Sequence record: PQ471515.1
DNA: 64,000 nucleotides
Source of the DNA: Escherichia phage Turkey3
Direction: 5' to 3' (one strand)
Numbering within the stretch: position 1 is the first letter of the stretch; the number at the start of each line of letters is the position of its first letter. The notes beneath the pieces are model-generated. The model was not told the origin of the DNA, ran no database searches, and was given only the letters and a program-made list of their open reading frames with translations. A program made the position numbers and the translations under genes. Below are positions 33,125 through 35,867 of this stretch, piece by piece.

Positions 33125-33508
33125 ATGGTTGATAAATGGAATAAGAAAGATCCATCGCATGATGTGGATATTTCTGGAATTGATAATGCACATAAGCATA
33201 AGTATCTTGATTCACTAGGTCTACTAAAGCCTGACCAAAGTCTTGCACATGATCGTCCTTCACGCGAAAAAGCTTTCAGTTTAGAATCACTAGGCCATGA
33301 ATTGAATCGTGTATTTGAAGATCATCCAATTTATGTACGTGATATCATTGAGAAACTTAAAGTGACTCCTAAAGAGCACTTCAAGGCAACAGTACACGCA
33401 GCATTCCGTGCACTACATGAAGCACTAAAGAAAACTCATAACCTTCGTAAGATTCATGATGATATCGTGAACTCTATTGAAGGCGAAAAACATAAGTTTA
33501 AAAAATAA
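33125..33508 (+). CDS. hypothetical protein (YLDSLGLLKP motif)
   Basis: 127 aa; AAGGAG RBS; shares motif with 34356..35867. Confidence 0.65.
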   Translation: MVDKWNKKDPSHDVDISGIDNAHKHKYLDSLGLLKPDQSLAHDRPSREKAFSLESLGHELNRVFEDHPIYVRDIIEKLKVTPKEHFKATVHAAFRALHEALKKTHNLRKIHDDIVNSIEGEKHKFKK

Positions 33509-33514
33509 TTAAAA

Positions 33515-33548
33515 GGGGTTGACTTCAGTCAGCCCTTTGTCGTATAAT
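33515..33548 (+). terminator. terminator-promoter fusion hairpin (GGGTTGAC family)
   Basis: GGGGTTGAC-ttca-GTCAGCCC plus T-rich tail, then TATAAT. Confidence 0.65.
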
Positions 33549-33595
33549 ATTTTCATCAAGTGATACAAAATACAAACAACGTGAGGTATTAAATT

Positions 33596-33709
33596 ATGCA
33601 AGGTACTAAATTCATCATCGCTGCCCTAATCGCTGCTGTTGTAGTGGGTACAGTATGTTATTCAATTGACACCTATATCAATACACCTAGTGTTGAACAA
33701 ACCAAATAA
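33596..33709 (+). CDS. small membrane protein (37 aa)
   Basis: GTGAGG RBS; hydrophobic core; below cutoff. Confidence 0.4.
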   Translation: MQGTKFIIAALIAAVVVGTVCYSIDTYINTPSVEQTK

Positions 33710-33717
33710 GGGATATC

Positions 33718-33981
33718 ATGGCTGAAACATTATCACTATATGCGTTAGTACTGTTATTTGTCGGATTTCTTCCCGCACTCATTACAGCCATTCGTGTTGT
33801 TAAACATGAAGCTGCATTGATTGTATGTAGTATTGGGTCGAACATTCTATTGTATTTCTTTTTGACAAACACTATTGTACTGTTCGCTTTCTTTATCATG
33901 ATTCTGTGGGTACTTGTAATTCTCGGATTCTTCATTTGGTCATTGGTTGATCCTAAGAAAAAAACAGGAGAAGTGAAATGA
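33718..33981 (+). CDS. small membrane protein
   Basis: 87 aa; preferred over antisense 33687..33935. Confidence 0.55.
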   Translation: MAETLSLYALVLLFVGFLPALITAIRVVKHEAALIVCSIGSNILLYFFLTNTIVLFAFFIMILWVLVILGFFIWSLVDPKKKTGEVK

Positions 33982-34274
33982 AATTAATTATTGTAATGAT
34001 GATGTTTTTGGCTTTCCCAGTACTGGCTACTCCTAATCTGGACTGCACACTGTTGCGTTCAGATGGTGACACACTTGAAATCAACACATATGAACTCTTT
34101 GGTCCAAGTGTAGTGGAGAATGAAACCACCTACAATTTCAAAGCTATTGACTTTGAAGGTAATGTTCCAGTACTAACTACAATGACTATTGACAAAACTA
34201 CTTTACTCGGACGAATCACCACACAACGCGGAGAAAGTAAAACATTCACAGCGAAAGCTGACTGTAACTACTAA
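33978..34274 (+). CDS. secreted hypothetical protein
   Basis: 98 aa; signal-peptide-like MKLIIVMMMFLAFPVLA. Confidence 0.55.
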   Translation: MKLIIVMMMFLAFPVLATPNLDCTLLRSDGDTLEINTYELFGPSVVENETTYNFKAIDFEGNVPVLTTMTIDKTTLLGRITTQRGESKTFTAKADCNY

Positions 34275-34296
34275 TGGTATAGTACAGTGAAAATAG

Positions 34297-34322
34297 GGTT
34301 GACTTCGGTCAACCTTTTCTTT
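34297..34322 (+). terminator. terminator-promoter fusion hairpin
   Basis: GGTTGAC-ttcg-GTCAACC plus T-rich tail. Confidence 0.7.
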
Positions 34323-34355
34323 ATACTATAAATATAGTCATAGAGAATAAACAAT

Positions 34356-35867
34356 ATGAAATCTATGGAGAGAAATCAAATGCCAGGTCAATTTACTGAT
34401 AAAAATGGCGGGAACATGGCAGGTCACTCTGATAAATGGAGTGAACGCAATCGTCGTCAAAATAGCTACCAAGCAGGACAGGGGTCACGTGGTTCACGTA
34501 ATCAAGGGACAGGTTTAGCTGGTAAGGCAAACGCAGAAGCAGGTGAAGTTAAGAGTACTGAGAACATGACTGAACTAGAAAAGCTACGTTATGTTAACTC
34601 ATTGGGTCTTCTTAACGCAACACAGAAACAACGCCTTGCTGATATGGAACGTGCTGAAAAAGAACAAGCAGTTCCTAAAGAAGAACCAAAACCAGAAGCT
34701 CCTAAAGCAGCTAACCCTGTTAAAGAGTTATCTGATAACTTAGGTAAGATCTTTGCTAACAAACCACAGTTGATTCAGGGTATTGTCAAAGCACTACAGG
34801 CAGTTCCTAAAGAAGAACTCAAAGGTAAAGCACAAGCTGTACTTGATGCAATGAAAGGTAATAAGAGCACTGAACCTACTGAAGTATTCAGTACTATCAT
34901 GCGTGCACTTGAAGGTACACACAAAGAAGATTCCAAAGAACCTGAACAGGGTGAAGCAAGTCTTGATGGTATTCTTAAAACTTTTGATAATATTGGTAAA
35001 GCAGACCGTGCTAATGCCCAGCAAGTCAAGAATGTACTGGCTAAACTTGAAAACCGTTTAGAAGGTAAAGACGATAAGGTTAAGCTCGTATCAGATGCAG
35101 TTAACAGTGCACTTAAATCTTATGTACAAGGTGAGAAAAGTCGCTTCGTAACAGCTATGGATGCTGCATTCAACACTATGAAAAAGTATGAAGCAGAACA
35201 TGGTGAGAAAGTGACACCTGATGGATATCTACTACGTAAAGATGAAGAAGGTGCAGTTGAACAGAAAGATGTTGAGCCTGAGCAAGAAGATCTACCTGAT
35301 ACCGTTGATATGGATGGATACATTCATCGTCCTGAGATGGAAGAGTTTGGGTCAGATAAAGAAGGTTTTGAACATGCAATGGAAGTATATAAAGCATTAG
35401 TTAAAAATCCAGATTATGCTAACCGTTTTGTTGACGAGTTTGATAGTGCATGGAATAACTATAAAGACAAAGGTTATGACTTCCCTGCTGAAGCTGCATT
35501 CTTTGAACTTGGTAAACTATTAGCTAAACATGGAATTGACGTTGGTTCATCTGATTCTGATGGTATGGAAGAAGAACATCTTGAAATGACTGATAAATCA
35601 ATTCATGAACTTCAAAAGTTAATGATGTGGATATCCGAGATTGGTAAAAAAGCAGGTGCTGATAGTAAAAGTATCAACAAAAATATTAGTTGGATTAAAG
35701 ATAATGTTGGTAACAATGCTCGTAAACTTCAAAAGGCTTGGGCTGATTTAGTAAATGGTGCAGATGATGTTGACATTGAATCACCAGAAGCATATGAGTA
35801 TGCACTAACTACACTTGATAACTCATTCAAAGAGTACGACCGTGGTGTTGGAAAGGATAAAAAATAA
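34356..35867 (+). CDS. large acidic, low-complexity hypothetical protein (503 aa)
   Basis: Long ORF; GAGAA RBS; biased codons (CTG, CGT, GGT); YVNSLGLLNATQ motif shared with 33125..33508. Confidence 0.8.
   Translation: MKSMERNQMPGQFTDKNGGNMAGHSDKWSERNRRQNSYQAGQGSRGSRNQGTGLAGKANAEAGEVKSTENMTELEKLRYVNSLGLLNATQKQRLADMERAEKEQAVPKEEPKPEAPKAANPVKELSDNLGKIFANKPQLIQGIVKALQAVPKEELKGKAQAVLDAMKGNKSTEPTEVFSTIMRALEGTHKEDSKEPEQGEASLDGILKTFDNIGKADRANAQQVKNVLAKLENRLEGKDDKVKLVSDAVNSALKSYVQGEKSRFVTAMDAAFNTMKKYEAEHGEKVTPDGYLLRKDEEGAVEQKDVEPEQEDLPDTVDMDGYIHRPEMEEFGSDKEGFEHAMEVYKALVKNPDYANRFVDEFDSAWNNYKDKGYDFPAEAAFFELGKLLAKHGIDVGSSDSDGMEEEHLEMTDKSIHELQKLMMWISEIGKKAGADSKSINKNISWIKDNVGNNARKLQKAWADLVNGADDVDIESPEAYEYALTTLDNSFKEYDRGVGKDKK

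Follow-up and report, generated by a model that had tools for sequence, protein, structure and literature searches.

Two paralogous members of a catalogued virion-protein family in an Asteriusvirus jumbo coliphage, and their candidate place in the particle

Within the window, by which we mean the whole 64,000-nucleotide stretch of DNA analysed here, a small open reading frame (ORF A) and a much larger one (ORF B) encode proteins with a similar short peptide near the N-terminus. This raises the question of whether the two are related beyond that motif and, if so, what they do for the phage. The window comes from an Asteriusvirus, a 121Q/PBECO4-like (Rak2-like) jumbo coliphage, and both proteins belong to an already known, catalogued virion-protein family (PHROG 16530/20398). 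In the overall account that we favour, and hold to be probable though far from secure, they are paralogous, late-transcribed virion proteins with an anchoring N-terminal module and an accessory C-terminus, possibly situated inside the head. Since two catalogued virion proteins have been found again, the main use of the analysis as it stands is a clean annotation: the start codon of ORF B, domain maps, paralogy, the order in which deletion and extension probably took place, a late promoter for each gene, and rejection of a "chromosome segregation protein" label.

Identity, paralogy and domain architecture

Both reading frames lie on the + strand where the original prediction had placed them (Table 1). 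It had given the larger one 503 residues from 34356; the frame is there, but translation almost certainly starts at 34380 (Met9), since a ribosome binding site stands 7 nt upstream of that codon and nearly all homologs begin MPG or MPS. The annotations of vB_Ec-M-J and 121Q use the same type of start. ORF A matches phrog_16530 (E=7.7e-55), while ORF B matches phrog_20398 (E=1.1e-244) and also the family of ORF A, phrog_16530 (E=3.6e-40); the 121Q annotation labels both orthologs as virion proteins. Within Asteriusvirus, identity is 95–100% for ORF A and 74–99.6% for ORF B (95% and 74%, respectively, for the phAPEC6 orthologs), and synteny and a late-promoter box are common as well. Against 121Q, the two proteins are 95% and 97% identical whereas the flanking genes reach 40–87%, making them the best conserved in the neighbourhood, and these figures lend no local support to the idea that ORF B evolves exceptionally fast. 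In the wider clade, it is the C-terminal modules that vary, together with the N-block, of which alternative alleles exist. Nothing of substance sets the locus apart from its relatives; it differs from 121Q and phAPEC6 by a two-gene insertion between the paralogs (33718–34274), with no counterpart in either.

Table 1. Features of the ORF A/ORF B locus, in window coordinates.
Feature	Position	Strand	Remarks
Sigma-70-like match TTGGAA-18-TATAAT, TG extension, upstream of ORF A	33021..33050	+	consensus scan 10/12; pattern match only
TATAAATA box, T4-type late promoter	33085..33092	+	33 nt 5' of ORF A start codon
Ribosome binding site AAGGAG	33113..33118	+	6 nt 5' of ORF A ATG; direct sequence reading
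ORF A	33125..33508	+	127 aa; basic protein with pI 9.05; orthologous to 121Q gp199 and phAPEC6 gp037c; PHROG 16530 "virion structural protein"
Motif YLDSLGLL, ORF A residues 27–34	33203..33226	+	junction helix from remnant N-block to helical bundle; predicted helix 21–30
Four-helix bundle of ORF A, residues 53–125	33281..33499	+	AlphaFold pLDDT 76–86; hhalign to ORF B bundle 1, 93.8%
Hairpin cassette, UUCG loop, with embedded TTGAC, then TATAAT	33517..33534	+	putative ORF A terminator and early-type promoter for next genes
Same hairpin cassette (UUCG loop) upstream of ORF B	34297..34314	+	putative shield of ORF B against transcription from upstream
TATAAATA box, T4-type late promoter	34327..34334	+	46 nt 5' of ATG 34380
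Ribosome binding site GGAGAG	34367..34372	+	7 nt 5' of ATG 34380; direct sequence reading
ORF B	34380..35867	+	495 aa from conserved start; ortholog of 121Q gp201 and phAPEC6 gp035c; PHROG 20398 plus 16530
N-block of ORF B, residues 1–80	34380..34619	+	basic (pI 9.6), Gly/Asn/Ser/Arg-rich, predicted disordered
Motif YVNSLGLL, end of ORF B N-block	34590–34613	+	
Four-helix bundle 1 of ORF B, residues ~111–178	34710..34913	+	homologous to ORF A bundle
C-terminal extension of ORF B, residues 183–495	34926..35864	+	pI 4.66; modular, differs between phages
Hairpin cassette downstream of ORF B	35878..35895	+	putative terminator

A paralog pair with one expanded member had been proposed from the peptides YLDSLGLLKP (ORF A residues 27–36) and YVNSLGLLNATQ (ORF B), both of which are present. 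Pairwise alignment, the check suggested at that time, bears the proposal out, with similarity extending well past the motif: the common module spans residues 8–121 of ORF A and about 1–182 of ORF B, to which ORF B adds a C-terminal extension of ~310 residues. BLASTP aligns 115 positions at 26% identity (E=5e-9), and a hidden Markov model built from B-type sequences alone gives ORF A 42.0 bits over residues 8–121; the highest-scoring of 1000 shuffles reached 10.7 bits. The helical bundles of the two proteins are matched by hhalign at 93.8% probability (E=1.8e-7). Because BLASTP, the PHROG cross-hit, the B-only model and the profile–profile scores all reach past the motif, ORF A and ORF B are, judged by their sequences, true paralogs.

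The contrary readings, that the resemblance is a chance short motif without paralogy or that ORF B belongs with the SMC/SbcC-like chromosome segregation proteins, can appeal to a pairwise identity of just 26% and to the label "chromosome segregation protein" of phAPEC6 gp035c, which derives from a similarity at E=0.039. Chance is, however, hard to reconcile with the alignment of ~114 of the 127 residues of ORF A, with a score so far above that of the shuffles, and with the agreement of PHROG and hhalign. As for the label, ORF B matches neither SMC, SbcC nor any other Pfam family at E<=0.1, has no PDB relative by sequence or fold, and lacks a recognisable ATPase head or hinge. Both readings are thus already refuted by the alignment, PHROG, hhalign, Pfam and PDB tests, and we give them practically no weight.

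In the predicted models, the Y-x-x-SLGLL motif is a junction helix linking a basic disordered N-block to a four-helix bundle. Four residues, K24, Y27, L31 and G32 (ORF A numbering, from the alignment), are invariant family-wide. The N-block of ORF B, with pLDDT <50 apart from a helix at 65–74, is conserved more widely than any other segment in the family, being kept from Asteriusvirus to Eneladusvirus and Mimasvirus; ORF A lacks its central ~30 residues, and the N-termini read MVDKWNKKD in ORF A and MPGQFTDKNGG in ORF B. The earlier description of ORF B as acidic and of low complexity holds in part. Its overall pI is 5.1 and its C-terminal 313 residues are acidic, but the first 182 are basic (pI 9.2–9.6); low complexity is found in places, but the acidic part is predicted to form three folded helical domains (195–274, 320–383 and 405–494) separated by acidic, low-confidence linkers. 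At current sensitivity these extra domains are not tandem repeats of the bundle, all hhalign probabilities being below 10% (best 9.3%, domain 2 versus domain 4).

Neither ORF A nor ORF B has a homology or fold match among characterised proteins. The C-terminal extension of ORF B contains no Pfam domain, and Pfam, PDB sequence searches and PHROG neighbours yielded nothing informative on function, the best PDB sequence hits being spurious designed-ankyrin matches at E>=0.002. Foldseek searches returned no match in the PDB (entries to April 2026; best E=0.4, generic helical bundles only), and family members or noise, with no function attached, in BFVD.

Late promoters, hairpins and codon usage

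By promoter type, which they have in common with the capsid genes, ORF A and ORF B are late genes. The TATAAATA box occurs only twice on both strands of the window (expected 12.35 +/- 3.13), once before each ORF, and it is kept upstream of their orthologs in 121Q (gp199, gp201) and phAPEC6 (gp037c, gp035c); ATAAATA also stands upstream of RaK2 ORF275 and Munch gp040. Throughout the 121Q genome there are 17 TATAAATA sites where ~66 would be expected; eight of the 17 precede virion genes, and the genes so preceded include those of the major capsid protein (MCP), scaffold and baseplate hub. Both marks of a T4-type late gene are found, namely the box ~30–55 nt 5' of the start codon and a gp55-like late sigma factor in the phage, gp591 of 121Q being annotated as "sigma factor for late transcription". 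The same late-promoter motif lies upstream of structural genes in CBB and GAP32 (PMC5259590). The two-for-two association of the box with this pair in a 64-kb early region offers a practical starting point for anyone mapping late transcription in these poorly studied phages.

The homologs in BF, GAP32, CBB, Yen9-04 and XbC2 have a consensus sigma-70 (early-type) promoter in place of TATAAATA, and timing may therefore differ between genera. Sigma-70-like matches also lie upstream of both ORFs in the window; the region has no more of them than shuffling would lead one to expect. The UUCG-loop hairpin cassette that recurs around the two genes occurs ten times in the window, where 0 copies would be expected, and the region 34290–34390, which includes one of them, folds at -22.6 kcal/mol (z=-2.98). 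Hairpins masking the ribosome binding site were not found at ORF A or ORF B (z=-0.1 to -1.6). Such a hairpin is present in distant single-copy homologs.

Codon bias in ORF B had been taken as host-preferred and as a hint of high expression. The bias is real for CGT (14/18) and GGT (29/39), but CTG, which had been named with them, is avoided (one of 35 Leu codons), and the pattern fits the late structural genes of the phage itself (CGT 0.79, GGT 0.70, CTG 0.01) rather than E. coli preference as such. Among 122 early-region ORFs nearby, 99% have a lower codon score than ORF B, which stands at the 64th percentile of 28 other virion genes. What survives of the claim is membership of the late-structural class: a score in that class, yet far below that of MCP (0.069 versus 0.337), suggests moderate late expression.

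Association with the virion and place in the particle

That the larger protein might be a virion component, first proposed from its codons, is backed instead by published mass spectrometry of orthologs. ESI-MS/MS of phAPEC6 virions detected gp035c with 8 peptides and gp037c with 5 (48% coverage; PMC7247149 Table 1), and the more distant homologs CBB_38 (9 peptides, 56.6% coverage), GAP32_032 and RaK2 ORF275 were likewise detected in virions (PMC5259590). The main text of the RaK2 paper, consulted for gel mass or processing, does not mention ORF275, and a search of the literature on structural placement of Asteriusvirus proteins found nothing. The phAPEC6 list also holds RecA, SSB, thymidylate synthase, topoisomerase and PhoH, so virion association alone is no proof of a structural role. 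It could be, then, that the family consists of abundant DNA- or capsid-associated proteins that are adventitiously co-packaged or co-purified and whose real role is intracellular, for example in host takeover or DNA metabolism. The position of both genes in the early/accessory region, the early-type promoter of the homologs in the five phages named above and the sigma-70-like matches at the locus would suit this explanation. We nevertheless think it improbable: the family is present in four independent virion proteomes from three genera, its small forms at 48–57% coverage, the sole two exact late-promoter boxes in 64 kb belong to this pair, and ORF B has the codon usage of a late structural gene.

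If ORF A and ORF B are indeed virion proteins in their own right, the common N-terminal module would serve to incorporate or anchor them in the particle, via a conserved partner or the packaged DNA, and the C-terminal extension would be a lineage-variable accessory part. The likeliest site, which we put forward tentatively and with less than even confidence, would be the non-lattice material inside the head, where they would be internal proteins or part of the inner body and might be ejected together with the DNA. We infer this from the inner body of phAPEC6 (91 x 18 nm in the phAPEC6 paper), the capsid shell of phiKp24, which is built of MCP alone, the basic, Lys-rich nature of ORF A, the isolated position of the genes, which lie in ~145 kb of small accessory genes at a great distance from the morphogenesis clusters, and models whose mix of disorder and small helical domains does not resemble fibre or lattice proteins. 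The phiKp24 cryo-EM paper is without mass spectrometry or internal-protein data.

A peripheral or external position, as accessories of the neck, the baseplate or the anchors of tail "hair" or whiskers, or as capsid decoration, is in our judgement unlikely but worth serious consideration. Rak2-like phages bear elaborate external appendages (hairy fibres in phAPEC6, whiskers in CBB), the phAPEC6 map at 10 A contains decoration and fibre-anchoring densities to which no gene products are assigned, 121Q has many unassigned "virion structural proteins", and a variable C-terminal part would also be compatible with surface exposure. The predicted architecture, however, is a disordered basic N-terminus with acidic helical bundles on flexible linkers, devoid of the beta-rich, trimeric or Ig-like features of fibre and decoration proteins; phiKp24 has an MCP-only shell and a tail of sheath and tube; and the genes lie outside the tail, baseplate and fibre clusters.

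A more specific version of the head-internal placement, doubtful as it stands, is that the family represents the Rak2-like inner-body protein or ejected internal proteins. N-block, junction helix and bundle would then form a module for packaging or DNA binding that has no relation to the capsid targeting sequence (CTS) of T4, and the acidic helical C-terminal domains of ORF B would be a swappable, lineage-specific payload delivered into the host, such as DNA mimics or anti-defence factors. These C-terminal domains contain no enzymatic or otherwise recognisable domain, and a cargo or effector role therefore has no positive support. Clade-wide conservation, mass spectrometry, the non-lattice appearance, late expression and a basic, disordered, DNA-binding-like N-terminus do make the family a reasonable inner-body candidate to test. 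Its importance would be greater if it proves head-internal; should its members be inner-body or ejected proteins, they would amount to a counterpart of the T4 internal-protein system that arose independently in 350-kb phages.

Likeness to known systems, range and history

[quoted passage not shown] Like these, ORF A and ORF B are late virion proteins whose genes lie among small accessory genes away from the head-gene cluster (PMC9026906); like the internal proteins, ORF A is small, basic and Lys-rich, and the family has a conserved N-terminus with a variable remainder and is poorly conserved between related phages. A gp21-like prohead protease is present in the phage, as in T4. The differences are no less clear. 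By tblastn there is no sequence similarity to the T4 proteins, and whereas the CTS is an N-terminal propeptide of 10–19 residues with the gp21 cleavage site, x-x-E, at its end (PMC9026906), the conserved N-terminal part here covers ~80–180 residues. The N-termini of ORF A and ORF B carry no short Glu-terminated propeptide, and a gp21-type cleavage site ([LIVM]-x-E) conserved across the family was not found, NPVKE|LSD being common to B-type proteins only. Nor is the N-block, as a CTS would be, common to several virion proteins within one phage. When the 348-kb 121Q genome and the window were translated in six frames and scanned with models of the N-block, of the bundle and of the complete module, only gp199 and gp201 were matched (next best E>0.8), and we therefore rejected a shared capsid-targeting tag; a pattern match, YLKSLGLV, in the gp417 methyltransferase is due to chance.

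The resemblance to phiKZ and SPN3US is that of jumbo myoviruses whose portal axis holds a radiation-sensitive inner body, as seen in phAPEC6. In phiKZ, too, the proteins of the inner body fall into paralog families, and their genes lie outside the main head module. To the gp93/95/97-type inner-body proteins of phiKZ the present pair shows no homology or fold similarity (Foldseek versus PDB and BFVD), and the prohead protease here is of another, T4 gp21-like type. The phAPEC6 authors report that no protein of that phage is similar in sequence to phiKZ inner-body proteins.

As far as the collections searched can tell, the family is narrow and confined to the Rak2-like clade. A tblastn search of 50,697 phage genomes matched only Rak2-like phages (Asteriusvirus, Alcyoneusvirus, Mimasvirus, Eneladusvirus and relatives) and no T4-like phage, and a profile search of 1.84e9 representative proteins returned 38 clusters, all of them family members or low-complexity noise. 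Members share this range, the N-block (partial in ORF A), the KLKYFxSLGLL junction and the four-helix bundle. The 121Q genome holds exactly two copies, and single-copy homologs of 153–173 aa occur in BF, GAP32, CBB, Yen9-04 and XbC2. Serratia BF gp027 counts among the members of the PHROG 16530/20398 family, as do CBB_38, GAP32_032 and RaK2 ORF275. The ancestor was probably a single protein of ~155–175 aa in which a basic disordered N-block was joined by a K-L-K-Y-F-x-S-L-G-L-L junction helix to a small four-helix bundle. Duplication would have given rise to ORF A, a derived copy minus ~30 Gly-rich N-block residues, and to ORF B, which would have kept the full module and gained three acidic helical C-terminal domains, swapped or diverged between phages. 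One homolog, P0081, has a full N-block joined to an A-type body. A second bundle is obvious in certain distant homologs (P0093, P0096).

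Two paralogous genes in an Asteriusvirus

Over the 3 kb around ORF A (the small gene) and ORF B (its large neighbour), identity is 99.6% with phage vB_Ec-M-J and 92% with 121Q, which places the window in an Asteriusvirus, one of the Rak2-like jumbo myoviruses (~350–380 kb). The family to which the two genes belong is already known and catalogued: the annotations of 121Q and fEgEco12 call both a 'virion structural protein', and both fall into PHROG 16530/20398, a Rak2-like virion-protein family. Both ORFs and their motif peptides (YLDSLGLL in ORF A, YVNSLGLL in ORF B) are present as originally predicted. 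ORF B, previously read as 503 aa from 34356, is a real ORF with a misplaced start: nearly all homologs begin at residue 9 of that reading (MPG/MPS...) and a GGAGAG ribosome binding site (RBS) lies 7 nt 5' of the ATG at 34380, giving the 495-aa protein used here.

The original prediction that the two are paralogs is borne out, with similarity that extends well past the shared motif. BLASTP aligns them over 115 positions (26% identity, E=5e-9), and phrog_16530, the family of ORF A, matches ORF B residues 9–188 (E=3.6e-40). An HMM built from B-type sequences alone scores 42.0 bits on ORF A residues 8–121, against a top score of 10.7 bits among 1000 shuffled ORF A sequences, and profile–profile comparison of the two helical bundles gives 93.8% probability. 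By sequence comparison, we regard the paralogy as solid.

The family is narrowly distributed: searching 1.84 billion representative proteins with a profile yielded only 38 clusters. Phages of Eneladusvirus and Mimasvirus (Serratia BF, Yersinia Yen9-04, GAP32, CBB, XbC2, Erwinia phages) each carry one copy, of 153–173 aa; Alcyoneusvirus (RaK2, K64-1) has the long form only; and in Munch-like Salmonella phages an A-type copy and one of 177 aa occupy different loci. Asteriusvirus has both forms, separated by one to three small genes. In the window a two-gene insertion, flanked by two UUCG-hairpin cassettes and lacking in 121Q and phAPEC6, lies between a gp200-like mini-ORF and ORF B. One of its products is a multi-TM protein of 87 aa that elsewhere carries the label 'immunity to superinfection'; the other has 98 aa and an N-terminus resembling a signal peptide. 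Neither matches a PHROG.

Coordinates of features in the window and at homologous loci
Feature	Location	Strand	Remark
ORF A	33125-33508	+	127 aa; orthologs 121Q gp199, phAPEC6 gp037c
ORF B	34380-35867		orthologs 121Q gp201, phAPEC6 gp035c
TATAAATA copy 1	33 nt 5' of ORF A		consensus scan of window
TATAAATA copy 2	46 nt 5' of ORF B start codon		consensus scan of window
GGTTGACTTCGGTCAACC 18-nt cores	21445, 29923, 33517, 34297, 35878, 36560, 40857, 41580, 42964, 45724	+	
Two-gene insertion	33718-34274		
Sigma-70 family gene	20471-21436	+	equivalent of 121Q gp167
432-aa ORF	41654-42952	+	
RCC1-like array	49098-63351	-	
Promoter-hairpin overlap	L005:4925-5010 (Serratia phage BF), L006:4925-5010 (GAP32), L008:2925-3010 (Yen9-04)		also CBB, XbC2
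SPFH/Band-7 family gene	L007 (CBB) 1602-2477, L005 (BF) 2662-3519, L006 (GAP32) 2176-3033		a few genes 5' of single-copy homolog

A disordered N-terminal block and a helical bundle

Aligned homologs, drawn from phage genomes and from metagenomes, agree with AlphaFold models on one architecture. The most widely conserved segment, though predicted to be disordered, is a basic N-terminal block rich in Gly, Asn, Ser and Arg (N-block; consensus MPGxF..KNG..AGHSDKWS..NRR.NS..AGQGSRGSRNQGTG..GK.N.....DTSKM..EEKLKYFNSLGLL). The shared motif is its C-terminal end and forms a short predicted helix, followed by a Pro/Glu/Lys linker and a four-helix bundle. These halves are separable, as some distant proteins consist of the N-block only while others begin at the motif and have only the bundle. 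ORF A (pI 9.05) retains 'DKW' and the motif and is missing the ~30 residues between them; since P0081, a metagenomic protein of 171 aa, joins a full N-block to an A-type body, ORF A represents a derived form produced by deletion.

ORF B has the full module and three extra helical domains (195–274, 320–383, 405–494) with acidic, low-confidence linkers between them. Profile–profile comparison detects no repeat relationship between these domains and the first bundle, and across phages they are present, absent or replaced. Its description as acidic applies to the C-terminal 313 residues (pI 4.66) and fails for the basic N-terminal 182 (pI 9.2–9.6). Among otherwise close Asteriusvirus relatives, residues ~1–60 of ORF B orthologs occur as two alternative N-block 'alleles', MPGQFTDKNGG...AGQGSRGSRNQGTG and the RaK2-like MPSDYNNGDMKHRNGAIVQHSKRKSEYRPAGNYHSGRKMSRNQSTG, which indicates that phage lineages of E. 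coli and of Klebsiella have recombined within the gene.

Late promoters, codon usage and hairpin cassettes

The T4 late-promoter consensus TATAAATA occurs only twice on the two strands of the 64 kb window taken together (12.35 ± 3.13 expected), once upstream of each paralog. The complete 121Q genome has 17 such sites against ~66 expected. Eight lie 24–55 nt 5' of annotated virion genes (major capsid protein, scaffold, three baseplate genes, gp54, gp199 and gp201), and four more precede other genes, endonuclease VII among them. 121Q encodes a late sigma factor, gp591; for CBB, a gp55-like factor and ATAAATA motifs 5' of structural genes are reported (PMC5259590). A different, sigma-70 family factor (regions 2 and 3) is encoded in the middle of the window's early-gene region and is followed by a UUCG-hairpin cassette.

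On a late-versus-early codon score, ORF B outranks 99% of 122 neighbouring early-region ORFs; compared with 28 other virion genes it falls at the 64th percentile, and the capsid protein scores much higher. Host-preferred codons had been proposed for ORF B; CGT (14/18) and GGT (29/39) are indeed enriched, but CTG accounts for just one of 35 Leu codons. As the late gene set has the same preferences (CGT 0.79, GGT 0.70, CTG 0.01), the bias is the phage's own late-gene signature.

A repeated hairpin, GGTTGACTTCGGTCAACC, has 10 plus-strand copies in the window where none is expected. It has a UUCG loop and contains a TTGAC -35 element; a T-run comes next, and ~17 nt downstream there is a -10-like box. 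It looks like a combined terminator and early promoter delimiting the gene cassettes of the region, recalling the PeSL elements of T4-type phages. Copies of this hairpin bracket ORF A and ORF B, making each a predicted insulated late transcription unit in an otherwise early-type region. In BF, GAP32, Yen9-04, CBB and XbC2, a 10-bp hairpin (AAUCCCCUAA/UUAGGGGAUU) upstream of the single-copy homolog encloses a consensus TTGACA-17-TATAAT promoter, and the 3' arm of this hairpin overlies the RBS (z=-2.6 to -4.9). Transcripts reading through would be masked from translation, leaving only own-promoter transcripts translatable. ORF A and ORF B are without this arrangement.

Virion membership and position in the particle

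Both proteins belong to the virion, on the strength of published detection of orthologs, and their codon usage is of the late class. In phAPEC6 virions, mass spectrometry (MS) found gp035c (8 unique peptides, 28.8% coverage) and gp037c (5 peptides, 48%; PMC7247149 Table 1). CBB_38 was detected with 9 peptides (56.6% coverage; PMC5259590), as were GAP32_032 and RaK2 ORF275 (PMC5259590 Suppl. S5). The proposed virion internal protein is thereby upheld as to the virion, while 'internal' is unproven. Our preferred explanation is that the shared N-terminal module mediates particle incorporation, the ORF B extension being a putative lineage-variable accessory part. Scanned in six frames with HMMs, the whole 121Q genome and the window gave exactly two copies of the module, which is therefore not a tag common to other virion proteins.

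A non-lattice, head-internal location is our tentative candidate, somewhat short of an even chance. It is favoured by the phAPEC6 inner body (91 x 18 nm), whose composition is not assigned, by the phiKp24 shell, made of major capsid protein only, and by AlphaFold models that resemble flexible beads on a string, unlike fibres or lattice proteins. ORF A is small, basic and Lys-rich, and the genes sit apart from morphogenesis clusters; at ~54–200 kb of 121Q, their orthologs are nearly the only virion genes. On the other side, distant homologs have a consensus sigma-70 promoter, and virion MS lists also hold clear non-structural proteins. Adventitious packaging seems improbable to us, and a role as peripheral structural components, though unlikely, is the less remote of these two alternatives.

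The closest functional analogy for a head-internal ORF A and ORF B is with the internal proteins of T4, which are small, basic, poorly conserved, present at ~360 copies per head and ejected into the host, with N-terminal targeting propeptides of 10–19 residues cleaved by gp21 (PMC9026906). Also on the other side of the question of head-internal location, the family as a whole has no conserved gp21-type [LIVM]-x-E site, although the 121Q scaffold has 25 of these within its first ~315 residues; NPVKE|LSD at residue 116 is common to B-type proteins only. As the defining sequence features of T4 internal proteins are lacking in ORF A and ORF B, these at most work like them and are not members. The phiKZ inner-body proteins are likewise unrelated, by fold search and by the comparison reported in the phAPEC6 paper. 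There is a modest upside should the family prove to be the missing component of Rak2-like phages, whether in the inner body or as ejected protein.

The SPFH/Band-7 protein encoded near the single-copy homologs of CBB, BF and GAP32 is an unusual virion component; MS also found it in the particles of CBB and GAP32. The window's tandem RCC1-like (beta-propeller) paralogs (Pfam PF25390/PF13540) comprise about a dozen ORFs of 245–461 aa, most of 370–390 aa; their phAPEC6 equivalents ('DNA condensation proteins') were found in virions and proposed as inner-body candidates. In the 432-aa ORF, residues ~291–314 resemble Peptidase_C58 (YopT-like cysteine protease) weakly and over a short length; the whole-protein E is 1e-8, yet no single stretch passes alone. 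The 42–46 kb region of the window is unusually AT-rich (GC 0.28–0.31).
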